A stretch of 64,000 nt of DNA from Escherichia coli (GTDB lineage Bacteria > Pseudomonadota > Gammaproteobacteria > Enterobacterales > Enterobacteriaceae). The stretch lies in NCBI RefSeq assembly GCF_013122565.1, contig NZ_CP053258.1; one strand, given 5' to 3'. Below the pieces are notes generated by a model. It saw only the letters and a list, made by a program, of their open reading frames with translations. It did not search any database and had not been told where the DNA came from. Position 1 is the first letter of the stretch. Each line of letters begins with the position of its first letter. Made by a program: the position numbers and the translations under genes. This document shows positions 48,478 through 64,000 of the stretch, piece by piece.

Positions 48478-49620
48478 ATGGAATGCGATCTGCTGATGAT
48501 TAAAATTGAAAAAGTAATTAATAAAAATGACCTTAAGGCATTTATCGCTTTTCCGTCATCACTTTATCCCGACGATCCAAACTGGATACCCCCTTTATTC
48601 ATTGAACGCAACGAGCATTTGTCTGCGAAAAATCCGGGGACGGACCATATCATCTGGCAGGCGTGGGTGGCAAAAAAAGCGGGGCAGATAGTTGGGCGTA
48701 TTACCGCGCAAATAGATACCTTGCACCGCGAGCGTTACGGCAAAGATACCGGTCATTTCGGCATGATTGACGCCATTGATGATCCGCAGGTTTTTGCCGC
48801 GTTGTTTGGCGCAGCGGAAGCGTGGTTGAAGTCACAAGGTGCAAGTAAGATCAGCGGTCCTTTCAGCCTGAATATCAATCAGGAAAGCGGATTACTGATT
48901 GAAGGTTTCGATACACCACCCTGTGCGATGATGCCGCACGGTAAACCGTGGTATGCCGCGCATATTGAACAATTGGGTTATCACAAAGGCATTGATTTAC
49001 TGGCGTGGTGGATGCAGCGAACCGATCTCACTTTCTCTCCGGCGCTAAAAAAACTGATGGATCAGGTGCGCAAAAAGGTGACCATTCGCTGCATCAATCG
49101 CCAGCGGTTTGCCGAAGAGATGCAGATCCTGCGTGAGATTTTCAACTCTGGCTGGCAGCACAACTGGGGATTTGTGCCGTTTACCGAACATGAATTCGCG
49201 ACCATGGGCGACCAACTTAAATATCTGGTGCCGGACGATATGATCTACATCGCTGAGATTGATTCTGCACCCTGCGCGTTTATTGTCGGCTTGCCGAACA
49301 TCAACGAGGCGATTGCCGATCTGAACGGATCGCTCTTTCCCTTCGGCTGGGCAAAATTGCTGTGGCGTTTGAAAGTCAGCGGTGTGCGAACTGCGCGAGT
49401 ACCGCTGATGGGCGTGCGCGACGAGTATCAGTTCAGCCGCATCGGCCCGGTAATTGCGCTGTTATTGATTGAAGCCTTACGCGATCCGTTTGCCCGCCGG
49501 AAGATCGATGCGCTGGAGATGTCATGGATCCTCGAAACCAATACAGGCATGAATAACATGCTGGAACGCATTGGGGCGGAGCCGTACAAGCGTTACCGAT
49601 TGTATGAAAAGCAGATTTAA
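48478..49620 (+). CDS. yghO: YghO, acyl-CoA N-acyltransferase-like protein (intact)
   Basis: 380 aa uninterrupted ORF; position next to glcC; alternative start at MIKIEK (48496). Confidence 0.7.
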   Translation: MECDLLMIKIEKVINKNDLKAFIAFPSSLYPDDPNWIPPLFIERNEHLSAKNPGTDHIIWQAWVAKKAGQIVGRITAQIDTLHRERYGKDTGHFGMIDAIDDPQVFAALFGAAEAWLKSQGASKISGPFSLNINQESGLLIEGFDTPPCAMMPHGKPWYAAHIEQLGYHKGIDLLAWWMQRTDLTFSPALKKLMDQVRKKVTIRCINRQRFAEEMQILREIFNSGWQHNWGFVPFTEHEFATMGDQLKYLVPDDMIYIAEIDSAPCAFIVGLPNINEAIADLNGSLFPFGWAKLLWRLKVSGVRTARVPLMGVRDEYQFSRIGPVIALLLIEALRDPFARRKIDALEMSWILETNTGMNNMLERIGAEPYKRYRLYEKQI

Positions 49621-49626
49621 TACCAG

Positions 49627-50391
49627 CTAACTCAGGTTCATCTCCAGCGGCACCGCCGAGCGAATCAAATGGTGGCCTTCCAGCTCGATATCGTGGAGAT
49701 TCTTTTTCACGGTCCGCACATGATCGCGTGCTGCGCGCTGGGCGACGTGCGGCAGCCGCTGCAACACCGCGTTGTAGATCCGCGCATGCTGGCGATCGAT
49801 CTGCTTTTTTTGCTGTGGTCGATGGTAGAGATTATTTACGCTGGCAAACACTGAATTAAACATCAGATCGGTCAATGATTGTAGCGTAAACACCAGCACC
49901 TGATTGTGAGAAGCCTGACAAATGGCGAGATGGAAAGCGTGATCCAACTGAGCATGTTCGATCAGCGAAATCTCTTTGTTGTTCTCACTGGCGGCGAGCA
50001 TTTTTTCATAACAGCGGGTTATCACAACAAAATCAGCCTGGGTTCCCAGCGTTGCCGCAAGCCTTGCCGATTCGCCCTCCAGCAATGCGCGAACGTCGAG
50101 CAGATCGTACAGCGTTCGCGGCTGCGTGCTGAACAGATGAATTAGCGGGCTGGTGTCCTGCACCCGATTAAGCCGTGCGACACGAGAATCGCGACCCTGC
50201 GCTGTTTCAATAATCCCGCGCCCGCGCAGCACGGTCAGTCCTTCACGCAGTGCGGAGCGTGAGAAGCCGAGCTTTTCACACAGTCGACGTTCCGAGGGAA
50301 GCGGCTGACCGACCTTCAGTACGCCGTCGATAATTAACCGTTCGATACTCTCTGCAACCACTTCGCAAATAGGGCGACGTTCATCTTTCAT
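49627..50391 (-). CDS. glcC: GntR-family transcriptional activator of the glc operon
   Basis: 254 aa from Met MKDERRPICEVVAESIERLIIDGVLKVGQPLPSER. Confidence 0.92.
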   Translation of the reverse strand: MKDERRPICEVVAESIERLIIDGVLKVGQPLPSERRLCEKLGFSRSALREGLTVLRGRGIIETAQGRDSRVARLNRVQDTSPLIHLFSTQPRTLYDLLDVRALLEGESARLAATLGTQADFVVITRCYEKMLAASENNKEISLIEHAQLDHAFHLAICQASHNQVLVFTLQSLTDLMFNSVFASVNNLYHRPQQKKQIDRQHARIYNAVLQRLPHVAQRAARDHVRTVKKNLHDIELEGHHLIRSAVPLEMNLS

Positions 50392-50641
50392 TCCCGGACC
50401 TCGTACACAGGTAGGACCAATTTTTCTGTTCTTAACTCGCAAAACACGCACATCACGTAAGTGAATATGTTACATCGATTTAACATTAAGTTAACCAAGA
50501 CAAGGTCACAGAGCTGGAAAAAAAATGGTCTGACCGGTAGCTAAAGAGATAGACGAAAACGAAAAGTCCGCTTAATAACTGTTCACAGAAGCAGCGCGCA
50601 AAAATCAGCTGCCACACAACACAACAAAGCGAAGCCTACTC

Positions 50642-52141
50642 ATGAGCATCTTGTACGAAGAGCGTCTTGATGGCGCTTTACCCGATGTCGACCGCACATC
50701 GGTACTGATGGCACTGCGTGAGCATGTCCCTGGACTTGAGATCCTGCATACCGATGAGGAGATCATTCCTTACGAGTGTGACGGGTTGAGCGCGTATCGC
50801 ACGCGTCCATTACTGGTTGTTCTGCCTAATCAGATGGAACAGGTGACAGCGATTCTGGCTGTCTGCCACCGCCTGCGTGTACCGGTGGTGACCCGTGGTG
50901 CAGGCACCGGGCTTTCTGGTGGCGCGCTGCCGCTGGAAAAAGGTGTGTTGTTGGTGATGGCGCGCTTTAAAGAGATCCTCGACATTAACCCCGTTGGTCG
51001 CCGCGCGCGCGTGCAGCCGGGCGTGCGTAACCTGGCGATCTCCCAGGCCGTTGCGCCGCATAATCTCTATTACGCGCCGGATCCTTCCTCACAAATCGCC
51101 TGTTCAATTGGCGGCAATGTGGCGGAAAATGCCGGTGGCGTCCACTGCCTGAAATATGGTCTGACCGTACATAACCTGCTGAAAATTGAAGTGCAAACGC
51201 TGGACGGCGAGGCGCTGACGCTGGGATCGGACGCGCTGGATTCGCCTGGTTTTGACCTGCTGGCGCTGTTCACCGGATCGGAAGGTATGCTCGGCGTGAC
51301 CACCGAAGTAACGGTGAAGCTGTTGCCGAAGCCGCCCGTGGCGCGGGTTCTGTTAGCCAGCTTTGACTCGGTAGAAAAAGCCGGACTTGCAGTTGGTGAC
51401 ATCATCGCCAATGGCATTATCCCCGGCGGGCTGGAGATGATGGATAACCTGTCGATCCGCGCGGCGGAAGATTTTATTCATGCCGGTTATCCCGTCGACG
51501 CCGAAGCAATTTTGTTATGCGAGCTGGACGGCGTGGAGTCTGACGTACAGGAAGACTGCGAGCGGGTTAACGACATCTTGTTGAAAGCGGGCGCGACTGA
51601 CGTCCGTCTGGCACAGGACGAAGCAGAGCGCGTACGTTTCTGGGCCGGTCGCAAAAATGCGTTCCCGGCGGTAGGACGTATCTCCCCGGATTACTACTGC
51701 ATGGATGGCACCATCCCGCGTCGCGCCCTGCCTGGCGTACTGGAAGGCATTGCCCGTTTATCGCAGCAATATGATTTACGTGTTGCCAACGTGTTTCATG
51801 CCGGAGATGGCAACATGCACCCGTTAATCCTTTTCGATGCCAACGAACCCGGTGAATTTGCCCGCGCGGAAGAGCTGGGTGGGAAGATCCTCGAACTCTG
51901 CGTTGAAGTTGGCGGCAGCATCAGTGGGGAACATGGCATCGGGCGAGAAAAAATCAATCAAATGTGCGCCCAGTTCAACAGCGATGAAATCACGACCTTC
52001 CATGCGGTCAAGGCGGCGTTTGACCCCGATGGTTTGCTGAACCCTGGGAAAAACATTCCCACGCTACACCGCTGTGCTGAATTTGGTGCCATGCATGTGC
52101 ATCACGGTCATTTACCTTTCCCTGAACTGGAGCGTTTCTGA
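50642..52141 (+). CDS. glcD: Glycolate oxidase FAD-linked subunit
   Basis: 499 aa; FAD-binding PCMH domain. Confidence 0.93.
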   Translation: MSILYEERLDGALPDVDRTSVLMALREHVPGLEILHTDEEIIPYECDGLSAYRTRPLLVVLPNQMEQVTAILAVCHRLRVPVVTRGAGTGLSGGALPLEKGVLLVMARFKEILDINPVGRRARVQPGVRNLAISQAVAPHNLYYAPDPSSQIACSIGGNVAENAGGVHCLKYGLTVHNLLKIEVQTLDGEALTLGSDALDSPGFDLLALFTGSEGMLGVTTEVTVKLLPKPPVARVLLASFDSVEKAGLAVGDIIANGIIPGGLEMMDNLSIRAAEDFIHAGYPVDAEAILLCELDGVESDVQEDCERVNDILLKAGATDVRLAQDEAERVRFWAGRKNAFPAVGRISPDYYCMDGTIPRRALPGVLEGIARLSQQYDLRVANVFHAGDGNMHPLILFDANEPGEFARAEELGGKILELCVEVGGSISGEHGIGREKINQMCAQFNSDEITTFHAVKAAFDPDGLLNPGKNIPTLHRCAEFGAMHVHHGHLPFPELERF

Positions 52142-53193
52142 TGCTACGCGAGTGTGATTACAGCCAGGCGCTGCTGGAGCAGGTGAATCAGGCAATTAGC
52201 GATAAAACGCCGCTGGTGATTCAGGGCAGCAATAGCAAAGCCTTTTTAGGTCGCCCAGTCACCGGGCAAACGCTGGATGTGCGTTGTCATCGCGGCATTG
52301 TTAATTACGACCCGACCGAGCTGGTGATAACCGCTCGTGCCGGAACGCCGCTGGTGGCGATTGAAGCGGCGCTGGAGAGCTCCGGGCAAATGCTTCCCTG
52401 CGAGCCGCCGCATTATGGTGAAGAAGCCACCTGGGGCGGGATGGTCGCCTGCGGGCTGGCGGGGCCGCGTCGCCCGTGGAGCGGTTCGGTCCGCGATTTT
52501 GTCCTCGGCACGCGCATCATTACCGGCGCTGGAAAACATCTGCGTTTTGGTGGCGAAGTGATGAAAAACGTTGCCGGATACGATCTCTCACGGTTAATGG
52601 CCGGAAGCTACGGTTGTCTTGGCGTGCTCACTGAAATCTCAATGAAAGTGTTACCGCGACCGCGCGCCTCCCTGAGCCTGCGTCGGGAAATCAGCCTGCA
52701 AGAAGCCATGAGTGAAATCGCCCAGTGGCAACTCCAGCCGCTACCCATTAGTGGCTTATGTTACTTCGACAATGCGTTGTGGATCCGCCTTGAGGGCGGC
52801 GAAGGATCGGTAAAAGCAGCGCGTGAACTGCTGGGTGGCGAAGAGGTTGCGGGTCAGTTCTGGCAGCAATTGCGTGAACAACAACTGCCGTTCTTCTCGT
52901 TACCAGGTACCTTATGGCGCATTTCATTACCCAGCGATGCGCCGATGATGGATTTACCCGGCGAGCAACTGATCGACTGGGGCGGGGCGTTACGCTGGCT
53001 GAAATCGACAGCCGATGACAATCAAATCCATCGCATCGCCCGCAACGCTGGCGGTCATGCGACCCGCTTTAGTACCGGAGATGGTGGTTTTGCTCCGCTA
53101 CCGGCTCCTTTATTCCGCTATCACCAGCAGCTTAAACAGCAGCTCGACCCTTGCGGCGTGTTTAACCCCGGTCGCATGTACGCGGAACTTTGA
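52141..53193 (+). CDS. glcE: Glycolate oxidase FAD-binding subunit
   Basis: 350 aa; coupled to glcD. Confidence 0.92.
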   Translation: MLRECDYSQALLEQVNQAISDKTPLVIQGSNSKAFLGRPVTGQTLDVRCHRGIVNYDPTELVITARAGTPLVAIEAALESSGQMLPCEPPHYGEEATWGGMVACGLAGPRRPWSGSVRDFVLGTRIITGAGKHLRFGGEVMKNVAGYDLSRLMAGSYGCLGVLTEISMKVLPRPRASLSLRREISLQEAMSEIAQWQLQPLPISGLCYFDNALWIRLEGGEGSVKAARELLGGEEVAGQFWQQLREQQLPFFSLPGTLWRISLPSDAPMMDLPGEQLIDWGGALRWLKSTADDNQIHRIARNAGGHATRFSTGDGGFAPLPAPLFRYHQQLKQQLDPCGVFNPGRMYAEL

Positions 53194-53203
53194 GGAGCAG
53201 GCT

Positions 53204-54427
53204 ATGCAAACCCAATTAACCGAAGAGATGCGGCAGAACGCGCGTGCGCTGGAAGCCGACAGCATCCTGCGCGCCTGTGTTCACTGCGGATTTTGTACCG
53301 CAACCTGCCCAACCTATCAGCTTCTGGGCGATGAACTGGACGGGCCGCGCGGGCGCATCTATCTGATTAAACAGGTGCTGGAAGGTAACGAAGTCACGCT
53401 TAAAACGCAGGAGCATCTCGATCGCTGCCTCACTTGCCGCAATTGTGAAACCACCTGTCCTTCTGGTGTGCGCTATCACAATTTGCTGGATATCGGGCGT
53501 GATATTGTCGAGCAGAAAGTGAAACGCCCACTGCCGGAGCGAATGCTGCGCGAAGGATTGCGCCAGGTAGTGCCGCGTCCGGCGGTCTTCCGTGCGCTGA
53601 CGCAGGTAGGGCTGGTGCTGCGACCGTTTTTACCGGAGCAGGTCAGAGCAAAACTGCCTGCTGAAACGGTGAAAGCTAAACCGCGTCCGCCGCTGCGCCA
53701 TAAGCGTCGGGTTTTAATGCTGGAAGGCTGCGCCCAGCCTACGCTTTCGCCCAACACCAACGCGGCAACTGCGCGAGTGCTGGATCGTCTGGGGATCAGC
53801 GTCATGCCAGCTAACGAAGCAGGCTGTTGTGGCGCGGTGGACTATCATCTTAATGCGCAGGAGCAAGGGCTGGCACGGGCGCGCAATAATATTGATGCCT
53901 GGTGGCCCGCGATTGAAGCAGGTGCCGAGGCAATTTTGCAAACCGCCAGCGGCTGCGGTGCGTTTGTCAAAGAGTACGGGCAGATGCTGAAAAACGATGC
54001 GCTGTATGCCGATAAAGCGCGTCAGGTCAGTGAACTGGCGGTCGATTTAGTCGAGCTTCTGCGCGAGGAACCGCTGGAAAAACTGGCAATTCGCGGCGAT
54101 AAAAAACTGGCCTTCCACTGCCCGTGTACCCTACAACATGCGCAAAAGCTGAACGGCGAAGTGGAAAAAGTGTTGCTTCGTCTTGGATTTACCTTAACGG
54201 ACGTTCCCGACAGCCATCTGTGCTGCGGTTCAGCGGGAACATATGCGTTAACGCATCCCGATCTGGCACGCCAGCTGCGGGATAACAAAATGAATGCGCT
54301 GGAAAGCGGCAAACCGGAAATGATCGTCACCGCCAACATTGGTTGCCAGACGCATCTGGCGAGCGCCGGTCGTACCTCTGTGCGTCACTGGATTGAAATT
54401 GTAGAACAAGCCCTTGAAAAGGAATAA
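53204..54427 (+). CDS. glcF: Glycolate oxidase iron-sulfur subunit
   Basis: 407 aa from Met MQTQLTEEMRQNA; CxxCxxCxxxCP motifs. Confidence 0.92.
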   Translation: MQTQLTEEMRQNARALEADSILRACVHCGFCTATCPTYQLLGDELDGPRGRIYLIKQVLEGNEVTLKTQEHLDRCLTCRNCETTCPSGVRYHNLLDIGRDIVEQKVKRPLPERMLREGLRQVVPRPAVFRALTQVGLVLRPFLPEQVRAKLPAETVKAKPRPPLRHKRRVLMLEGCAQPTLSPNTNAATARVLDRLGISVMPANEAGCCGAVDYHLNAQEQGLARARNNIDAWWPAIEAGAEAILQTASGCGAFVKEYGQMLKNDALYADKARQVSELAVDLVELLREEPLEKLAIRGDKKLAFHCPCTLQHAQKLNGEVEKVLLRLGFTLTDVPDSHLCCGSAGTYALTHPDLARQLRDNKMNALESGKPEMIVTANIGCQTHLASAGRTSVRHWIEIVEQALEKE

Positions 54428-54431
54428 CAAA

Positions 54432-54836
54432 ATGAAAACTAAAGTCATTCTTAGCCAGCAAATGGCGAGTGCAATTATTGCCGCAGGTCAGGAAGAGGCG
54501 CAGAAAAATAACTGGTCTGTTTCCATTGCTGTTGCCGATGACGGCGGTCATCTGCTGGCGTTAAGTCGCATGGACGATTGCGCGCCGATTGCGGCTTACA
54601 TCTCCCAGGAGAAAGCGCGTACCGCCGCGCTGGGGCGTCGTGAAACTAAGGGCTATGAAGAGATGGTGAACAACGGACGTACCGCGTTCGTGACTGCGCC
54701 GTTATTAACGTCGCTGGAAGGCGGCGTACCGGTTGTTGTTGATGGACAAATTATTGGTGCCGTGGGCGTTTCTGGTTTAACCGGAGTACAGGATGCGCAG
54801 GTCGCGAAAGCGGCAGCAGCGGTGTTGGCGAAATAA
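54432..54836 (+). CDS. glcG: GlcG (heme-binding-like, DUF336)
   Basis: 134 aa from Met MKTKVILSQQMASAIIAAG. Confidence 0.9.
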   Translation: MKTKVILSQQMASAIIAAGQEEAQKNNWSVSIAVADDGGHLLALSRMDDCAPIAAYISQEKARTAALGRRETKGYEEMVNNGRTAFVTAPLLTSLEGGVPVVVDGQIIGAVGVSGLTGVQDAQVAKAAAAVLAK

Positions 54837-54857
54837 GCGAAAACGAGGAGAGAAACA

Positions 54858-57029
54858 ATGAGTCAAACCATAACCCAGGGCCGTTTACGCATTGACGCCA
54901 ATTTTAAACGTTTTGTGGATGAAGAAGTTTTACCGGGAACAGGGCTGGACGCTGCGGCGTTCTGGCGCAATTTTGATGAGATCGTTCACGATCTGGCACC
55001 AGAAAATCGTCAGTTGCTGGCAGAACGCGATCGCATTCAGGCGGCGCTTGATGAGTGGCATCGCAGCAATCCGGGGCCGGTAAAAGATAAAGCGGCCTAT
55101 AAATCTTTCCTGCGTGAACTGGGCTACCTGGTGCCGCAACCGGAGCGCGTGACGGTGGAAACCACGGGCATTGACAGCGAAATCACCAGTCAGGCGGGGC
55201 CACAGCTGGTGGTTCCGGCAATGAACGCCCGCTACGCGCTGAACGCGGCGAACGCTCGCTGGGGCTCACTGTACGATGCGTTATACGGCAGCGACATCAT
55301 CCCGCAGGAAGGGGCGATGGTCAGCGGCTACGATCCGCAACGCGGTGAGCAGGTTATCGCCTGGGTTCGGCGTTTCCTCGATGAATCTCTACCGCTGGAA
55401 AACGGCAGCTATCAGGATGTGGTGGCGTTTAAGGTGGTCGATAAACAATTACGCATCCAGTTGAAAAATGGTAAAGAAACCACGTTACGTACCCCGGCGC
55501 AGTTTGTCGGTTACCGTGGCGATGCCGCTGCGCCGACCTGCATTTTGCTGAAAAATAACGGCCTGCATATTGAACTGCAAATTGATGCCAACGGGCGGAT
55601 TGGCAAAGACGATCCGGCGCACATCAACGATGTTATCGTCGAAGCTGCTATCAGTACCATTCTCGACTGCGAAGATTCGGTCGCGGCGGTTGATGCGGAA
55701 GATAAAATCCTGCTGTACCGCAACCTGCTGGGCCTGATGCAGGGGACTCTGCAAGAGAAAATGGAGAAAAACGGTCGACAAATCGTGCGTAAACTGAATG
55801 ACGATCGTCATTACACCGCCGCCGATGGCTCTGAAATTTCTCTGCACGGACGCTCGCTGCTGTTTATCCGCAACGTGGGTCATTTGATGACCATTCCTGT
55901 GATTTGGGACAGCGAAGGCAATGAAATCCCGGAAGGCATTCTTGATGGCGTCATGACTGGCGCGATTGCCCTCTATGATTTAAAAGTGCAGAAAAACTCG
56001 CGCACTGGCAGCGTCTATATTGTGAAACCGAAAATGCACGGTCCGCAGGAAGTGGCGTTCGCCAACAAACTGTTTACCCGCATTGAGACAATGCTCGGTA
56101 TGGCACCGAATACCCTGAAAATGGGCATTATGGATGAAGAACGTCGGACCTCGCTGAACTTGCGTAGCTGTATCGCTCAGGCGCGCAACCGCGTGGCGTT
56201 CATCAATACCGGTTTCCTCGACCGTACCGGCGATGAAATGCATTCGGTGATGGAAGCTGGCCCGATGCTGCGTAAAAACCAGATGAAATCGACGCCGTGG
56301 ATCAAAGCCTACGAACGTAATAACGTGCTTTCCGGTCTGTTCTGTGGGCTGCGCGGTAAAGCGCAAATCGGTAAAGGCATGTGGGCAATGCCGGACCTGA
56401 TGGCAGACATGTACAGCCAGAAGGGCGACCAACTGCGTGCCGGGGCAAACACAGCCTGGGTTCCGTCACCAACCGCTGCTACGCTCCATGCGCTGCACTA
56501 CCACCAAACCAACGTACAGAGCGTGCAGGCCAACATTGCCCAGAGCGAGTTCAATGCTGAATTTGAACCGCTGCTGGACGATCTGCTGACTATTCCGGTG
56601 GCTGAAAACGATAACTGGTCGGTGGAAGAGATCCAACAAGAGCTGGATAACAACGTGCAGGGGATTCTGGGGTACGTGGTGCGCTGGGTGGAGCAGGGGA
56701 TTGGTTGTTCAAAAGTGCCGGATATTCACAATGTGGCGCTGATGGAAGACCGCGCAACGCTGCGTATCTCCAGCCAGCATATCGCCAACTGGTTACGTCA
56801 CGGTATTCTGACCAAAGAACAGGTGCAGGCGTCGCTGGAGAATATGGCGAAAGTGGTTGATCAGCAAAACGCTGGCGATCCGGCTTATCGTCCGATGGCG
56901 GGGAATTTCGCTAACTCGTGTGCTTTTAAAGCTGCCAGCGATTTGATCTTCCTCGGCGTGAAACAGCCAAACGGTTATACCGAACCGTTATTACACGCCT
57001 GGCGTTTACGCGAAAAAGAAAGTCATTAA
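54858..57029 (+). CDS. glcB: Malate synthase G
   Basis: 723 aa; [31 protein letters not shown]. Confidence 0.95.
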
Positions 57030-57383
57030 TAGCGTCAAAAAAGCCCCGGCAAGTTTTATTGTCGGGGCTATGATAGTAACTGCGGTAGTACATTTATCCC
57101 GGAAATAACCGGAGCGATTATCAGGGTTTAACAATATTAAATACCCGTAGCGCATTACTAGCGGGCCTAAAACAACAATATGGACATCTTAACGATACTC
57201 TGCGCCTGCGTGTGCGGAACAGAAACCCTTACCCGATATACTTGTTATGCCAGAGGTAGCAATTGCGTTAGCGGCGTACTGTTGCTGTAAAGTATAACGC
57301 CTATATTTTACAGTTCAGTCCTCTTTTGCTTATTGCAACCTTAAGTATATCAAGCATATAAAGATAATAAGAGACTGAACAAT

Positions 57384-59066
57384 ATGGTTACCTGGACCCA
57401 AATGTATATGCCGATGGGAGGACTGGGGCTATCCGCTCTGGTCGCCCTGATCCCGATAATATTCTTCTTCGTTGCACTCGCGGTATTACGTCTGAAAGGA
57501 CATGTCGCTGGAGCAATAACCCTTATATTATCTATCCTGATTGCGATATTCGCCTTTAAAATGCCGATTGATATGGCATTTGCTGCTGCGGGCTATGGCT
57601 TTATTTATGGATTATGGCCAATTGCGTGGATTATTGTCGCGGCGGTGTTCCTGTATAAATTAACCGTTGCCAGCGGGCAGTTCGATATTATCCGCAGCTC
57701 GGTTATCTCCATCACTGACGATCAGCGTTTGCAGGTGTTACTGATTGGTTTCTCCTTTGGTGCGTTGCTGGAAGGAGCGGCTGGCTTTGGTGCGCCGGTG
57801 GCGATTACCGGTGCGCTGCTGGTGGGCCTGGGCTTCAAACCGTTATACGCGGCGGGGCTGTGTCTGATTGCCAATACTGCGCCGGTGGCGTTTGGTGCGT
57901 TGGGCGTGCCGATTCTGGTCGCCGGTCAGGTAACGGGAATCGATCCGTTCCACATTGGCGCAATGGCGGGACGTCAGTTACCGTTCCTGTCGGTTCTTGT
58001 GCCGTTCTGGCTGGTAGCAATGATGGACGGCTGGAAAGGGGTGAAAGAGACGTGGCCAGCGGCGCTGGTTGCTGGGGGAAGCTTCGCTGTCACTCAGTTC
58101 TTTACCTCTAATTATATTGGTCCGGAACTGCCGGATATTACTTCGGCGCTGGTGAGTATCGTCTCACTCGCTTTATTCCTTAAAGTCTGGCGGCCGAAAA
58201 ATACCGAAACGGCAATCAGCATGGGACAATCCGCAGGTGCGATGGTGGTAAATAAGCCATCTTCTGGCGGTCCCGTGCCTTCAGAATATAGTCTGGGGCA
58301 AATCATTCGTGCGTGGTCACCGTTTTTAATCTTAACGGTGCTGGTCACCATCTGGACCATGAAGCCGTTTAAAGCGTTATTTGCTCCGGGCGGCGCGTTT
58401 TATTCACTGGTGATTAATTTCCAGATCCCTCATTTGCATCAACAAGTGTTGAAAGCGGCACCCATTGTCGCCCAACCAACGCCAATGGATGCGGTGTTTA
58501 AATTCGACCCTCTCTCGGCTGGCGGCACCGCTATTTTTATTGCGGCGATTATCTCTATCTTCATCCTCGGCGTGGGCATCAAGAAAGGGATTGGCGTCTT
58601 TGCCGAAACGCTAATTAGTCTGAAGTGGCCGATATTGTCGATTGGCATGGTGCTGGCGTTCGCCTTCGTCACCAACTATTCCGGCATGTCCACCACGCTG
58701 GCGCTGGTACTGGCAGGTACAGGCGTGATGTTCCCGTTCTTCTCACCGTTTCTCGGCTGGCTGGGCGTATTCCTTACCGGCTCGGACACCTCCTCTAACG
58801 CCCTGTTTGGTTCACTGCAATCGACCACGGCGCAGCAAATCAACGTCTCTGACACCCTGCTGGTGGCAGCAAATACCAGCGGCGGCGTAACTGGCAAGAT
58901 GATCTCCCCGCAATCTATCGCCGTGGCCTGCGCCGCGACGGGCATGGTGGGCCGGGAATCTGAACTGTTCCGCTACACCGTGAAGCACAGTCTGATTTTT
59001 GCCAGCGTTATCGGCATTATCACGCTGTTGCAGGCGTATGTGTTTACCGGGATGTTGGTAAGTTAA
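57384..59066 (+). CDS. glcA: Glycolate/lactate permease
   Basis: 560 aa; LctP-family polytopic membrane protein. Confidence 0.93.
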
Positions 59067-59091
59067 TAGAATAGTTATGCCTGACGTTAAT

Positions 59092-59125
59092 ACAAACCCA
59101 GTCTATCAGACTGGGTTTGTTAGTA
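59092..59125 (+). terminator. Rho-independent terminator of glcA
   Basis: caaacccagtct-atc-agactgggtttg hairpin followed by a T-rich tract. Confidence 0.65.
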
Positions 59126-59478
59126 TTTCCGATATCAGACAGGGAAAATGCCTGGTCAGAAATGGGGCGTAATTCGGTTTTCTCAAAAAAGTAAAAAACG
59201 CCTTGTGGGCGGGGGATTATCTTACGACATGTAATTTGTTCCATACTTTTAAACTCCCCATTGTTATGAAGTAAAGGCGTTATCTTTTTATCCGTTCAAA
59301 CTTTAGCTCAAATTTGTAGCATGCAGATTCCGGTATTTTTCCTGATACCAGAAAAAAGTCACTGGAGGAAAGGTTGTGATAAAAATCACAAATTAAGTCA
59401 GGTTACTGGAGATAAAGTCTGCAACAGAGAATTATCGTAGTCTGTGTACCTCAACCAGTATTTTAAAGGCTCTGCTAC

Positions 59479-60975
59479 ATGGAAGAAAACACAAGGCAGC
59501 GTACAGAAAATTATATTTCAGCAAAAAACCAGCATCCCGCCTGGATACTCCTTGCCACTCGCCGTGCTCCACTGGTATTGAGTTGCCTGAAAACGCTTTT
59601 TGAAAAATCACATGATGGCATTCCCCTTGAGGAAGCTATTCAGTCTCTTTCCAGTATTCTCATTGAGCATGTGAGTCAGGAACAGTATGACATTAATCAG
59701 GACAATCCATTTCTTCAGGCCAGTCGTGAACTGCGGGAGTGGATTAAACGCCGTTTAATTGTCGAACGGGATGGCCGTATTTTTGCTACCGATGCGCTTG
59801 AGGTCGCGATTACGTTTGTAGAGTCTCTGGATAATCGTTTTATGACCTCTACGGCTTCCCGTTTGTCCACCGTTCAGCGAGAAATTGAAAACCTGGAAAC
59901 ACGGCTTAATCCTAACCCGGCAAACCGGGTTGCAACCTTACGTCGTCGTATTTCTGAACTGGAACGCGAACTACAGGAGGCAGAAGCCGGGCATATTGAG
60001 GTGCTGGAAACGCACCAGGCGGTTGAGCATATTCGTGATGTCTACAATTTAGCTTCCAGCCTGAGGGCTGACTTTCGTCGTGTTGAAGACTCCTGGCGTG
60101 AGGCTGACCGCGCTCTTCGCCAATCCATTATTGGTGAGCAATATCATCGTGGCGATATAGTAGAACGCCTGCTCAACGATCAGGACGCGCTGCTTAATAC
60201 GCCGGAAGGAAGAGTTTTCGACAGCTTTCAGCAACAGCTCCGTCAATCTTCTGAACTTAAAGCGATGAGTGAACGATTACGTGTGATCCTTAGCCATCCT
60301 TCTGCTTCTGATGCGCTTAACCGTCTACAGCGTCACGATCTGCGCTGGCTGGTTAAACGCTTGGTCGATGAATCGCAAACTGTCCTCCAGGCTCGCGCCC
60401 GTAGCGAGCGTGATGTCCGTGGTTTCATGAAAACCGGTCTTGCTGCTGAACATCATCGTGTTGGTCATTTGCTTAATGAGTTTCTGAATCTGGCGTTAAA
60501 ACTCGACTGGCAGCGCCAGATGATTCGTAAACAAGAGGTGCCGCTACCTGCCGTTGGTGTGGCGGTAACAGGCATCCCCGCTATTGAACGTTTACGTTTT
60601 AAAGAAGTGGATGATGAAGCAGAGCAGACGTTGGATCTCAGTAATCATGCGGCAGATTTAACGCAGATTGGCGATGATTTCTGGGATGCCTTCAATGGCC
60701 TCGATCGTGAGGTGTTGATTCAGCAGACGTTGCAGCTTCTGGCAAAAGAGAATCGCCCCGTTGGTTTAGCTGAACTGGCGGAGCTGTTGCCCCCGGCTCA
60801 CGATCTCGAAACATTCGCCGTCTGGATTGGTATGGCGAGAGAAGCGGGTATTGAGGTTATTGATTCACAACGTGAATTTGCTGAGCTTAGTGATGGGGAA
60901 GGTCGCCGCTGGCGATTTAATCTGCCCACCACTGGTCTGGAAAGTCAGGCATTAATGGATATCGATTGGGAGTAA
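59479..60975 (+). CDS. jetA: Wadjet JetA-like protein (MukF-like kleisin, DUF3375-type)
   Basis: 498 aa; first of three genes in MukF/MukE/MukB-like order; size and predicted coiled-coil content match JetA. Confidence 0.55.
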   Translation: MEENTRQRTENYISAKNQHPAWILLATRRAPLVLSCLKTLFEKSHDGIPLEEAIQSLSSILIEHVSQEQYDINQDNPFLQASRELREWIKRRLIVERDGRIFATDALEVAITFVESLDNRFMTSTASRLSTVQREIENLETRLNPNPANRVATLRRRISELERELQEAEAGHIEVLETHQAVEHIRDVYNLASSLRADFRRVEDSWREADRALRQSIIGEQYHRGDIVERLLNDQDALLNTPEGRVFDSFQQQLRQSSELKAMSERLRVILSHPSASDALNRLQRHDLRWLVKRLVDESQTVLQARARSERDVRGFMKTGLAAEHHRVGHLLNEFLNLALKLDWQRQMIRKQEVPLPAVGVAVTGIPAIERLRFKEVDDEAEQTLDLSNHAADLTQIGDDFWDAFNGLDREVLIQQTLQLLAKENRPVGLAELAELLPPAHDLETFAVWIGMAREAGIEVIDSQREFAELSDGEGRRWRFNLPTTGLESQALMDIDWE

Positions 60976-60980
60976 CAGGT

Positions 60981-61730
60981 ATGGCGGGCTTTTTTGACAA
61001 GCTGATTAACCGGAGCGTTACTGCAAATGCAGGCTGTGAACCAGAACCATCGGATGAGGAGGTTACCGATGAGTCGGTTGAAGATAGTTTGGCCAGTAGT
61101 GAAACGCGGACGCTACAAAAAATACGCGAAGCGACTCAGGAATTGCTCAAATACGGCCTGCTGGAAGAGGCCAGTAAGCCTAATCTGTACCGCATCGTAC
61201 TGAGCCATCCTGAAGAGGTTACTCGTATTCTGGAGCCTCTCGATCTGGATATCGGCATTGATGAGATCCGTGGCCTGCTGTATGTCAAAGTCAGGCTTGA
61301 TGAAACGCCTGCGCAGGATGAATGGGCCCACCCTCTGGTGAGACGGCAACGACTTAACCTGGAACAATCTTTATTAGTTGCCATACTGCGCCAACATTTT
61401 GTGGCCTGGGAGCAGGAAAGCGGAACCGGTGCCAGTCAGGCACAGATCGCCATCGATGATCTTCTCCCTCAACTCCAGATTTATCTTGGCGACCCGGGCA
61501 GTGAATCAAAAGAACGCACCCGATTGCTTACCCTGCTGGATCAATTAAAGGGGCATGGGCTGGTGACGTCGCCGGATGCACATGAGCGGATCGTCATCCG
61601 TCCGATCATTGCTCATCTTGCCGATCCGATCAATCTTCAGGCATTACTGGCATGGCTGCGAGAGCAAATTGCCCAGCAAACCTCTCCAAATGACGCGCCA
61701 GAAAAGGATAGCAGCGAGGAGGACGTATGA
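60981..61730 (+). CDS. jetB: Wadjet JetB-like protein (MukE-like, DUF4194-type)
   Basis: ~249 aa from ATG at 60981 with GGGAG RBS; acidic; the ORF track starts at TTG 60966. Confidence 0.55.
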   Translation: MAGFFDKLINRSVTANAGCEPEPSDEEVTDESVEDSLASSETRTLQKIREATQELLKYGLLEEASKPNLYRIVLSHPEEVTRILEPLDLDIGIDEIRGLLYVKVRLDETPAQDEWAHPLVRRQRLNLEQSLLVAILRQHFVAWEQESGTGASQAQIAIDDLLPQLQIYLGDPGSESKERTRLLTLLDQLKGHGLVTSPDAHERIVIRPIIAHLADPINLQALLAWLREQIAQQTSPNDAPEKDSSEEDV

Positions 61731-64000
61731 ATCAGGTATCTGGCCTGGCTGGAAAGGAATCTTTCATTCTTACCCGTATTGAGTTGTTCAACTGGGGCGG
61801 TTTTCATGGATTGCATCAGGCAGCAATCCATCAGGATGGTACCGCCGTTATTGGCCCAACCGGGAGCGGAAAAACGACGTTGGTCGATGCCCTGATGACG
61901 CTGCTCTGCGCCAATCCTCGCTACAATCTTGCCTCAACCGGCGGCCATGAAAGCGACAGGGATCTTATCTCTTACGTGCGTGGCGTATCCGGCCCCGGTG
62001 ATGGCGGTGAGGGGCAATCGCATATTGCCAGACCGGGTAAAACCGTGACAGGTATTGCCGCTACGCTGGAGCGCGAAGGAAAGCAGGTCCGTCTGGGGGC
62101 GTTATTGTGGTTTGATTCCACCAGTTCCAGCGTGACGGATATGAAAAGGCTCTGGCTGTTCAGTGATAATCCCGGGCAGACGCTGGAGCACTGGCTAAAC
62201 GTTTACCATGAGGGTGGTACACGTTTGCTCCGACAGATGGAAAAAGAAGCCATCGGGCTTTGGACATACCCGAATAAAAAGCAGTATCTGGCGCGCCTGC
62301 GGGATTTCTTCGAGGTGGGGGAAAACGCGTTTACGTTGTTAAACCGGGCGGCAGGGTTAAAACAACTCAACAGTATTGATGAGATTTTTCGCGAGCTGGT
62401 GTTAGACGATCACTCCGCCTTTGATCGCGCGGCTGAAGTGGCCAATAGTTTTGATGGTCTGACTGAGATTCATCAGGAACTGGAAACCGCTCGCAAACAA
62501 CAGCAGTCTTTACAACCTGTCGCCCTGAGCTGGGAGAAGTACCAAAAGCAAGAGCGTCAACTGGCTGACTGGCTGACGCTGGAATCGCTGTTACCCCTCT
62601 GGTTTGCACAACAGGCAAGCCACCTCTGGCGGGAAAAGATTAACCTTCTTAACGCAAGGCTCGCTGAGGCACAAACCAGCGAAGAACAGCTCCAGTCACA
62701 GCTTGATTTGCAAAAAAAGGTGGTTAGCGACTGTATGCAGCGCTATCTCCAGGTCGGCGGTGCCAATATTGATGAACTGAACGAGCGTATCAAGGACTGG
62801 CAAAAAACGCTCGGCAGTCGAGAGGCCTTGGCACGTCAATATCAACAGCTGACCCGTAACCTTGGATTGCCGTCTGATCTGAGCCAACCACAGCTGGAGG
62901 CGAATCAGCATGAAGCCGAGGCCCGATGTGAGCAGATCGCCGTTGATATAAAGTTAAAACAGGAAGAAGCGTATCAAAAAGGTGCGCTTAGCCATCACAT
63001 TACCGAAGAGCTTCGGGAACGGGAAAATGAACGCGCCGAGATCGCGCGTCGCCCGGATTCTAACCTTCCCGCACATTATCAGGCGTTTCGTAGTGAGCTG
63101 GCAAAAGCGTTGAACGTGGATGAGTCTGAACTGCCTTTCGTCGCTGAACTGATACAGGTTAAACCGGAAGAGGCGCAATGGCGCGGTGCGATTGAGCGTG
63201 CTGTCGGGAGTAACAGGCTGCGTATTCTGGTTGCGCCTGAATCGGCACAGGAAGCGCTGCGCTGGGTAAATCAGCGCAACAACCGTCTGCATGTGCGGCT
63301 ACTGGAGGTCAAATTACCGCACTCTCCCGCCCGGTTTTTCGACGATGGCTTTACCCGCAAGCTGTTGTGGAAAGATCATCCGTGGCGAGAGGCCGTCAAA
63401 GCATTACTGGCCGAAAGCGACAGGCATTGTGTTGACAGCCCTGAACAACTGCATGACACGCCTCATGCTATGACGGTGCAGGGATTAATGTCTGGTAAAC
63501 AGCGTTTTTATGACAAGCATGATCAGAAACGCCTTGATGAAGACTGGCTGACGGGATTCGATAACCGCGATCGCCTGAACTTCCTTGCTAAAGAAATTGC
63601 CACGCTTCAGGAGCAGGTTAAAACCGCAAACGCGGCATTTGAGTTTGCGAAAGGCGAGGTGGGGCTTTTGCAAAATCAGGCTGCTTCCTTCCAGAAAATA
63701 GAACAAATTGATTTCGATAGCATCGATGTTCCCGGCGCGAAGAGCCAACTGGACGCGCTCAGGGAGCGGCTGGAAAATCTGACCCGCCCGGATTCTGACG
63801 CCAGTGTAGCGAAAGCAAAACTTGATGAGGCTCAAACGATTGAATCTGAACTCGATAAGCAGCTCAGAGCTGCCAATAAAGTCACTAACGTGCTGGATAC
63901 AGAACTCACATTAGCCCGTGCCGCGGAACGTAAGGCCCAGCAAACTGCACAACAAGGTATGAAGGAAGAAGAGCGAGAGTTGTGCGCGTCACATTTTCCA
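61727..64000 (+). CDS. jetC: Wadjet JetC-like SMC-family ATPase, 3'-truncated by window end
   Basis: Uninterrupted frame for 758 codons to the window end; ATG overlaps the jetB stop; N-terminal Walker A GPTGSGKTT; long predicted coiled-coil region. Confidence 0.6.
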   Translation, partial: MNQVSGLAGKESFILTRIELFNWGGFHGLHQAAIHQDGTAVIGPTGSGKTTLVDALMTLLCANPRYNLASTGGHESDRDLISYVRGVSGPGDGGEGQSHIARPGKTVTGIAATLEREGKQVRLGALLWFDSTSSSVTDMKRLWLFSDNPGQTLEHWLNVYHEGGTRLLRQMEKEAIGLWTYPNKKQYLARLRDFFEVGENAFTLLNRAAGLKQLNSIDEIFRELVLDDHSAFDRAAEVANSFDGLTEIHQELETARKQQQSLQPVALSWEKYQKQERQLADWLTLESLLPLWFAQQASHLWREKINLLNARLAEAQTSEEQLQSQLDLQKKVVSDCMQRYLQVGGANIDELNERIKDWQKTLGSREALARQYQQLTRNLGLPSDLSQPQLEANQHEAEARCEQIAVDIKLKQEEAYQKGALSHHITEELRERENERAEIARRPDSNLPAHYQAFRSELAKALNVDESELPFVAELIQVKPEEAQWRGAIERAVGSNRLRILVAPESAQEALRWVNQRNNRLHVRLLEVKLPHSPARFFDDGFTRKLLWKDHPWREAVKALLAESDRHCVDSPEQLHDTPHAMTVQGLMSGKQRFYDKHDQKRLDEDWLTGFDNRDRLNFLAKEIATLQEQVKTANAAFEFAKGEVGLLQNQAASFQKIEQIDFDSIDVPGAKSQLDALRERLENLTRPDSDASVAKAKLDEAQTIESELDKQLRAANKVTNVLDTELTLARAAERKAQQTAQQGMKEEERELCASHFP

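Follow-up and report, generated by a model that had tools for sequence, protein, structure and literature searches.

Probable assignment of the genes downstream of glcA in an Escherichia coli chromosome to a type I Wadjet (JetABCD) operon

What do the genes located directly 3' of glcA (57384-59066) in this E. coli chromosome encode, and would their products act against plasmids? The window, i.e. the whole stretch of 64,000 bases that was analysed, ends within these genes. An initial annotation had proposed that they are three coupled genes of a Wadjet-like module, and the three ORFs were confirmed at 498, 249 and 758+ codons. The sequence comparisons lead us to conclude, with a probability of about 0.94, that these genes make up the 5' two-thirds of a type I Wadjet (JetABCD) operon of the chromosome, whose products would cut plasmids as ecJET does.

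Gene layout and assignment of the jet genes

All three genes lie on the + strand. jetA (59479..60975) is complete and encodes a DUF3375 kleisin subunit of 498 aa; jetB (60981..61730), also complete, encodes a DUF4194 KITE/MukE-like subunit of 249 aa; jetC (61727..64000) encodes an SMC ATPase of which codons 1-758 of 1095 are present, the gene being interrupted by the window edge. The jetA-jetB gap is 5 nt, and the jetB stop and the jetC start overlap as ATGA. A TTG at 60966 would extend JetB to 254 aa; the ATG at 60981 (249 aa) has a GGGAG Shine-Dalgarno 9 nt 5', and the PDB constructs begin there. Translation of jetC meets no stop for 758 codons up to 64000, bringing the open codons visible in the window to 1,505. 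The visible part of jetC comprises the N-terminal head half, the coiled coil, the hinge and the start of the returning coiled coil. The N-terminal Walker A / P-loop GPTGSGKTT, already pointed out for the third gene, was found at JetC residues 43-51 (61853..61879, + strand), and the positions of the Walker B E1022 and of the signature motif fall past the window end. A 66-aa ORF on the - strand (59044-59244), overlapping the 3' end of glcA and its terminator, was taken as spurious.

The initial annotation had read these proteins as a kleisin-like JetA, a MukE-like JetB and an SMC-like JetC, and had called for PADLOC and HMM searches; all three proteins matched the expected DUF3375, DUF4194 and JetC profiles, and PADLOC placed them, from end to end, in type I Wadjet. 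JetA reaches 900.9 bits with PADLOC JetA1 (residues 1-498, profile length 499) and 2e-106 with Pfam DUF3375 (PF11855); JetB reaches 386 bits with JetB1 and 7e-28 with DUF4194 (PF13835); the 758 visible residues of JetC reach 1073 bits with JetC1 (profile positions 6-762 of 1108) and 6e-20 with Pfam AAA_29. PADLOC scores of 901, 386 and 1073 bits put the assignment to Jet far above chance. The subtype is that of type I, since the top PADLOC matches are all JetA1, JetB1, JetC1 and JetD1, the last with jetD of relatives; the sole type II match is JetC2 (E = 2.9e-4). With NCBIfam, none of JetA, JetB and JetC reached the cut-off of any family; this does not count against the assignment because NCBIfam holds no curated Jet model.

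The proteins are moreover identical to those of a complex with published structure and biochemistry, that of E. coli GF4-3: JetA over 498/498 residues (PDB 8q72_E / 8as8_E), JetB over 249/249 (8as8_C) and JetC over the 758/758 visible ones (8as8_A). By sequence, a type I Wadjet operon thus begins after glcA: jetA and jetB are whole, jetC is represented by its first two-thirds, and the finding is already known. The low novelty that had been anticipated was if anything understated, as ecJET, a published model system, has these very proteins.

The 3' end of jetC, jetD and the predicted mechanism

Since the window stops within jetC, we turned to relatives. Over window positions 56000-64000, blastn finds 0 mismatches with the public assembly L004, which continues with an intact jetC (1095 aa), jetD (382 aa), then pheV and yqgA. 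With L004 as a proxy, jetD is predicted at virtual coordinates 65016-66164, past the 64000-base window. The full-length jetC is 1095 aa in L004, L005 and L001; the L004 JetC has GGSGGEK (residue 983), LDEAF (residue 1020) and E1022, and the catalytic residues JetC E1022 and F919 and JetD E248 match the published numbering. L004 JetD is identical to 8q72_M apart from the engineered E248A. JetD, a Toprim protein with DUF3322 and JetD_C, scores 641 bits with PADLOC JetD1. jetD lies directly 3' of jetC in L004, L005, L001 and six diverged relatives, and the four-gene order jetABCD is kept in these six. The downstream JetD that had been expected was therefore recovered as a Toprim protein after jetC, in the window-identical L004 and in every intact relative examined. 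A far-upstream indel distinguishes the window from L004 and L005.

Some annotations split jetC (the PGAP annotation of CX12, the gene calls in L004 and in Serratia L011). These splits are annotation artefacts, because direct translation gives one intact ORF in each case. The jetC of Pantoea L012 is truly frameshifted.

Proteins identical to these perform ATP-dependent loop extrusion and JetD cutting, as shown in K-12 and in vitro (bioRxiv 10.1101/2022.10.04.510915; 10.1101/2023.11.03.565488). GF4-3 JetABCD restricts circular DNA up to ~100 kb, linear pJAZZ escapes, and JetC(E1022Q) and JetD(E248A) are dead (bioRxiv 10.1101/2022.10.04.510915). By cryo-EM, stalled motors hold U-shaped DNA, which JetD then kinks (bioRxiv 10.1101/2023.11.03.565488). 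The products of the present genes would be expected to act likewise. JetC (SMC ATPase), JetA (kleisin) and JetB (KITE) would assemble into a dimer-of-pentamers DNA motor that loads on DNA and extrudes loops with ATP. On a small circle (below ~50-100 kb) extrusion would be completed and the two motor units would stall against each other, holding what DNA remains in a tight bend; the Toprim nuclease JetD would bind, kink and cleave this segment, and the plasmid would be linearised and lost. Linear DNA and the chromosome would be spared because they are never fully extruded. We infer that this mechanism may operate in the window's own genome, which supposes the 3' end of jetC and jetD beyond the window, and native expression.

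Chromosomal site and upstream region

K-12 homology reaches no further than 59059, 7 nt short of the glcA stop; the GlcA protein is unchanged, and most E. coli genomes match only query bases 59000-59059. The glcA-jetA spacer (59060..59478, + strand, ~40% GC), delimited by blastn of L004 against K-12, forms the left end of a jet-lineage-specific segment of 7.45 kb that stands where K-12 has the yghJ(sslE)-yghD block. As stated in the initial annotation, glcA is followed by yghJ/sslE in K-12; the accessory island proposed there does occupy a variable interval, glcA-pheV, but a replacement of the yghJ-yghD block describes it better than an insertion.

Among 5,426 complete E. coli genomes, only 8 (0.15%) carry the whole segment. 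Its left junction is found in 13, five of which have lost or truncated the module, so that decay does occur: at this same locus MB53 has an in-frame jetA::jetD deletion, LHM10-1 an ISEc52 truncation and 6EVA an ISKpn26 truncation. In the glcA-pheV interval the jet module is rare and has been eroded repeatedly. PLSDB contains no close copy of it, only ~66%-identity homologues on Ralstonia/Cupriavidus megaplasmids, and a plasmid-borne origin in enterobacteria is accordingly not supported. Some relatives of the module adjoin other defence genes.

The intrinsic-terminator-like hairpin downstream of glcA (59092..59120, + strand) has a perfect stem of 13 bp, a loop of 3 nt and a T-rich tail, and jetABCD would accordingly need a promoter of its own. 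The glcA-jetA spacer contains a perfect CRP-type palindrome, TGTGATAAAAATCACA (TGTGAT-N4-ATCACA; 59375..59390, no strand assigned), which we propose as a candidate cAMP-CRP operator. The centre of the palindrome lies 96 bp 5' of the jetA ATG; the palindrome matches the TGTGA-N6-TCACA consensus core at 10/10 positions (59375-59390) and occurs once in the 64-kb window, for 0.10 expected. Of 11 diverged cassettes lying in unrelated genomic contexts, 6 keep the site, at -92 to -101, and identity among cassettes is 0.88 in its half-sites as against 0.35 in its spacer and 0.34-0.41 in the flanks; it was found in 5 of 10 relatives, as compared with at most 2 in 2000 shuffles. An FNR site was rejected, the half-sites being GTGA and not TTGA.

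In the same spacer a consensus sigma-70 scan called no promoter, and Rfam returned nothing significant. Conservation among relatives nevertheless points to a candidate promoter core (59407..59435, + strand) made of a -35-like TGGAGA (59407-59412), a 17-nt spacer and a -10-like AATTAT (59430-59435), both hexamers falling within conserved blocks of the upstream alignment. Relative to this putative promoter the candidate CRP site would be placed at about -59.5 to -61.5, an approximate position of class I type. A class II geometry (centre -41.5) was set aside, the matching -10 (GATAAA/GAGAAA) lacking the invariant final T.

The conservation of this candidate operator near jetA suggests a possible cAMP-CRP control of native jet expression. 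A more tentative proposal, to which we give slightly less than an even chance, is that a cAMP-CRP-dependent promoter forms part of the Wadjet cassette, its operator travelling with the cassette across Escherichia, Xenorhabdus and other Enterobacterales. If so, plasmid restriction would switch on when carbon is limiting and cAMP high, and would be damped in glucose; anti-plasmid immunity would be linked to the physiological state, and the studies based on pBAD would have bypassed a natural layer of control. Native regulation of Wadjet was not addressed in the literature searched, and the conserved CRP-type operator provides a directly testable hypothesis on this regulation in natural hosts.

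Alternative readings and comparison with known systems

The module could be present in the window's genome but non-functional or silent, as a decaying remnant or an unexpressed cassette. The deletion and IS truncations at the same locus, the frameshift in Pantoea and the negative sigma-70 scan of the spacer all lean this way, as does the origin of the published activity, which was all obtained from the arabinose promoter pBAD at glmS in K-12 (bioRxiv 10.1101/2022.10.04.510915; 10.1101/2023.11.03.565488) and not from the native promoter and host. We nevertheless consider silence or decay unlikely: every visible codon is open and encodes residues identical to those of proteins shown active, the sequence-identical proxy L004 has both jetC and jetD intact, and promoter-like blocks and a CRP-type site are conserved upstream of jetA. 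GF4-3, from which the ecJET proteins were cloned, carries no plasmids, an anecdotal observation compatible with activity. A primarily anti-phage function is evoked by MB53, where RefSeq calls the product "Wadjet anti-phage system protein JetD", by PADLOC itself, a library of anti-phage defence systems, and by the defence genes next to some relatives; it is very improbable given that GF4-3 JetABCD leaves T4, T6, T7, P1 and lambda plaques unaffected, yet causes loss of circular plasmids (bioRxiv 10.1101/2022.10.04.510915).

A second chromosome-condensing complex, i.e. a housekeeping duplicate of MukFEB, would have the same three-subunit SMC/kleisin/KITE architecture, and JetC does weakly resemble MukB in the head and coiled coil (~25% identity; E = 2e-4 and 1e-3). 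But in BLASTP JetA and JetB give only E = 1.5 with K-12 MukF and E = 2.4 with K-12 MukE, NCBIfam has no Muk match, a nuclease gene (jetD) is attached in relatives, and the published motor arrangement is opposite to that of MukBEF (bioRxiv 10.1101/2022.10.04.510915). With matches to housekeeping MukF, MukE and MukB absent or only local, the difference from these proteins noted initially is borne out, and the Muk comparisons together with the rarity of the module have already refuted a duplicate, which keeps next to no probability.

For the annotation of this genome, the jet locus marks a functional-looking anti-plasmid system. Such a system would make small circular plasmids harder to take up and to maintain, and would bear on transformability and on how resistance plasmids spread.

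MukBEF shares with JetABC the SMC-kleisin-KITE make-up, the P-loop head and the long coiled coil. It differs in having a kleisin and a KITE without significant similarity, in the resemblance of JetC and MukB being limited to ~25% in short stretches, in having no nuclease partner, in being universal in E. coli whereas Jet is in 0.15% of genomes, and in its opposite dimer geometry (bioRxiv 10.1101/2022.10.04.510915). Like Jet, MksBEFG of Corynebacterium glutamicum combines an SMC complex with a Toprim nuclease in defence against plasmids. The MksG nuclease (PDB 8B7F) matches JetD at E = 1.5e-10, but MksBEFG is no more than distantly related, the best matches of the window proteins being to the type I Jet profiles. 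JetABCD of Pseudomonas aeruginosa, which we take to be that of PDB 8DK1-8DK3 and 7TIL, has the same four subunits and type I architecture, and matches over the full length (JetA 4e-226, JetB 7e-92, JetC 1570 bits, JetD 5.5e-149); Pseudomonas JetA homologues are clearly diverged (~70% identity) and lie in a different genomic context. Finally, E. coli GF4-3 JetABCD (ecJET; PDB 8AS8, 8BFN, 8Q72, 9QXR-9QXX) is residue for residue the same in JetA, JetB and visible JetC, with like gene order and coupling and no difference detectable within the window; the window may stem from GF4-3 or from another strain that has the same module. As these are the proteins of the model system, the locus brings no gain for understanding Wadjet itself; what it adds to the ecJET papers, modestly, is the native chromosomal setting of the module between glcA and pheV and an upstream regulatory region with its conserved CRP-type operator.

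Identity of the genes downstream of glcA

By ORF scan, glcB (54858-57029) and glcA (57384-59066) are followed by jetA (59479-60975, 498 aa) and jetB, which can be read as 254 aa from TTG 60966 or as 249 aa from ATG 60981. The ATG is preceded by a GGGAG Shine-Dalgarno 9 nt 5' and is the start in the deposited structures. jetC is open at the window edge and therefore absent from the ORF-tool list, so it was translated directly from 61727: 758 codons run without stop to the window end, with GPTGSGKTT as residues 43-51 (nt 61853-61879). The start codon of jetC overlaps the stop codon of jetB in an ATGA. The three coupled genes had thus been accurately described in all details (positions, sizes, coupling and Walker A). 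A minus-strand ATG ORF of 66 aa (59044-59244), antisense over the glcA stop codon and terminator hairpin, is probably spurious.

JetA matches PADLOC JetA1 (900.9 bits, positions 1-498 of a 499-position profile), JetB matches JetB1 end to end (386.2 bits), and the visible part of JetC matches JetC1 (1073.1 bits, profile positions 6-762 of 1108). The corresponding Pfam families are DUF3375 (2e-106), DUF4194 (7e-28) and AAA_29 (6e-20); NCBIfam, searched with the three proteins, gave no fitting model. JetA is identical to PDB chains 8q72_E/8as8_E (498/498), JetB to 8as8_C (249/249) and visible JetC to 8as8_A (758/758), i.e. to the JET/Wadjet-I complex of E. coli GF4-3, "ecJET" (bioRxiv 10.1101/2022.10.04.510915; bioRxiv 10.1101/2023.11.03.565488). 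PADLOC, Pfam and PDB identity thus bear out the kleisin-like JetA, MukE-like JetB and SMC-like JetC of the initial annotation, and the profile searches it proposed (PADLOC; DUF3375, DUF4194 and JetC) all matched. That the genes could instead be housekeeping mukFEB is contradicted by BLASTP against the K-12 proteins: E = 1.5 for JetA with MukF, E = 2.4 for JetB with MukE, and just two short stretches at ~25% identity for JetC with MukB. The module is real, distinct from MukFEB, and was correctly interpreted.

The glcA-pheV interval and the end of the operon

The K-12 order is glcA-yghJ(sslE)-pppA-yghG-yghF-yghE-yghD-pheV, in agreement with the glcA-yghJ/sslE adjacency given in the initial annotation. 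In the jet lineage K-12 homology ends at 59059, 7 nt short of the glcA stop codon, with no change to the GlcA protein, and restarts 11 bp past the pheV 3' end; a 7,450-bp jet segment thus stands in place of 9,150 bp of K-12 sequence.

A contig look-up found the exact JetA encoded on contigs from two NCBI assemblies, one of which (GCA_052983875.1, hereafter L004) shows zero mismatches with window ~56000-64000. There jetC is a single ORF of 1095 aa, jetD (382 aa) begins 2 nt past the jetC stop, and tRNA-Phe (pheV), on the opposite strand ~356 bp past jetD, is followed by yqgA. JetD has DUF3322 and JetD_C domains. The copy in E. coli CX12 (98.7% identical) is a full-length PADLOC JetD1 (641 bits), and that of L004 is identical to PDB 8q72_M save for the engineered E248A. 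JetC E1022 (Walker B LDEAF), JetC F919 and JetD E248 all fall at the published residue numbers. The JetD expected past the window is thus present in L004; for the window's own genome we infer the jetC 3' end and jetD from this sequence-identical proxy.

The window and L004 differ at 81 sites in ~49600-55900 (6.3 kb, glc operon) and at none in the last 8 kb, which covers the glcB 3' end, glcA and jetABC. This mosaic points to a putative recombination breakpoint inside glcB.

The whole module occurs in just 8 of 5,426 complete E. coli genomes (98.3-98.7% identity). Five further genomes have the left junction without the whole module, i.e. 13 carry the lineage junction and 8 are intact. In MB53 (L003 9462-10589) an in-frame deletion of 5,577 bp joins JetA residues 1-30 to JetD from ~residue 44, a fusion that carries the annotation "JetD domain protein" (375 aa); in LHM10-1 (L002 9480-9801) ISEc52 cuts off jetA past its first 322 nt, and in 6EVA (L008 9253 onward) ISKpn26 truncates the module at 59252. 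These three cases show independent erosion of the module at this locus. W444 and CP52E have the match patterns of MB53 and LHM10-1 respectively. CX12 has a CP4-like integrative element (L001 19656-28618) separating jetD from pheV. It carries genes for CbtA/YafW toxin-antitoxin, RadC, an antirestriction protein, and DUF4942, DUF932 and GTPase proteins; a separate pheV island can thus share the interval with the jet module.

Diverged cassettes and a candidate CRP operator

No close copy of the module was found among PLSDB plasmids. Six diverged relatives (JetA 78-89% identical) come from Salmonella, Xenorhabdus, Serratia, Pantoea, "Martelella alba" and one metagenome. All six keep the jetA-B-C-D order in unrelated neighbourhoods, so the four genes behave as a self-contained portable cassette. 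Several diverged cassettes adjoin other defence or toxin genes (L014 5983-7689, L018 1469-2690, L011 14715-17497, L009 16759-17440 and L010 14758-15407). Such neighbours include an OLD-family AAA_15 plus TOPRIM protein, a ScoMcrA/HNH nuclease with CdiI, RelE/HTH and PIN pairs and, in the Serratia mutS-rpoS interval, a DEAD helicase with a DprA-like gene. The insertion sites of the cassette tend to be defence islands.

In CX12 (L001 14728-18015), L004 (12249-15536) and Serratia (L011 10236-13541), jetC is split by RefSeq/PGAP and other gene callers into a partial pseudogene and a "SbcC/MukB-like Walker B" protein of 448-452 aa. Each translates as one uninterrupted ORF (1095-1101 aa), so the splits are annotation artefacts, and their recurrence could make defence-system finders overlook intact Wadjet loci. 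In Pantoea sp. B65 (L012 10249-13534) jetC has a true frameshift after ~codon 575, which marks either a pseudogene or a fault in the assembly.

The glcA-jetA spacer (412 bp) starts with a strong glcA terminator hairpin (59092-59120), hence the jet operon needs its own promoter. The CRP consensus is TGTGAT-N4-ATCACA. The spacer contains a palindrome, TGTGATAAAAATCACA (59375-59390), with all 12 core positions, the sole copy in the 64-kb window (0.10 expected). Its half-sites are GTGA (CRP type) and not TTGA, which argues against an FNR site. In an alignment of 200-nt jetA upstream regions from ten diverged cassettes, five, including Xenorhabdus, have the centre of the palindrome between -92 and -101 relative to jetA (L015, L016, L017, L010 and L018; core matches 10/10, 10/10, 9/10, 9/10 and 8/10), and a sixth relative matches at 7/10. 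Over 2,000 shuffles, never more than 2 of 10 loci had such a site in that range. The palindrome is conserved in 6 of 11 diverged Wadjet cassettes of unrelated genomic contexts. Pairwise comparison of the six sequences with the site shows far stronger conservation of the half-sites (identity 0.88) than of the N4 spacer (0.35) or the 20-nt flanks (0.34-0.41). The Salmonella, Serratia, Pantoea and "M. alba" cassettes lack the site, which means that CRP control, if any, is not universal.

On the 3' side, conserved blocks follow: CTGGAGA, then GAATTATC, then an AAGG Shine-Dalgarno. They hold -35-like and -10-like hexamers at 17-nt spacing, which a consensus promoter scan of the spacer did not call. 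If these candidate hexamers hold, the predicted CRP centre would lie near -60, similar to the class I arrangement of lac. The CRP-type site is flanked by direct repeats of 17 nt, GTCACTGGAGGAAAGGT (59358-59374) and GTTACTGGAGATAAAGT (59402-59418), which are 76% identical and 44 nt apart, the second overlapping the -35-like TGGAGA; the repeats show no obvious conservation in the relatives. The candidate operator suggests that native jetABCD expression may be under cAMP-CRP control. No paper linking Wadjet with CRP was found in the searchable literature, and all functional work swapped out the native promoter (bioRxiv 10.1101/2022.10.04.510915; bioRxiv 10.1101/2023.11.03.565488; a later hinge-bypass paper).

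Published activity of the identical proteins

The mechanism considered here is taken from the literature on the identical proteins. Liu et al. placed the operon recovered from GF4-3 under pBAD control in K-12: circular plasmids were lost, linear pJAZZ was stable for 50 generations, the upper size limit was ~50-100 kb, and T4, T6, T7, P1 and lambda were unaffected; JetC(E1022Q) and JetD(E248A) abolished function (bioRxiv 10.1101/2022.10.04.510915). In vitro, purified JetABCD cuts supercoiled, nicked or relaxed circular DNA at near-random positions, requires ATP and all four subunits, and leaves linear DNA uncut (same reference). Roisné-Hamelin et al. made linear DNA sensitive by artificial circularisation; the DNA segment left over is U-shaped and held by the stalled motor units, and a JetD dimer turns it into a kinked V-shaped cleavage substrate (bioRxiv 10.1101/2023.11.03.565488). 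A later paper on the same complex describes obstacle bypass via the JetC hinge. The best-supported explanation of the window is that SMC loop extrusion would gauge DNA shape and size, with this readout linked to a Toprim nuclease. The Jet system itself is known, being the reference for type I Wadjet; the conserved CRP-type operator is the sole element going past published knowledge and may be new, and it stands as a regulatory hypothesis that can be tested, not as a result.
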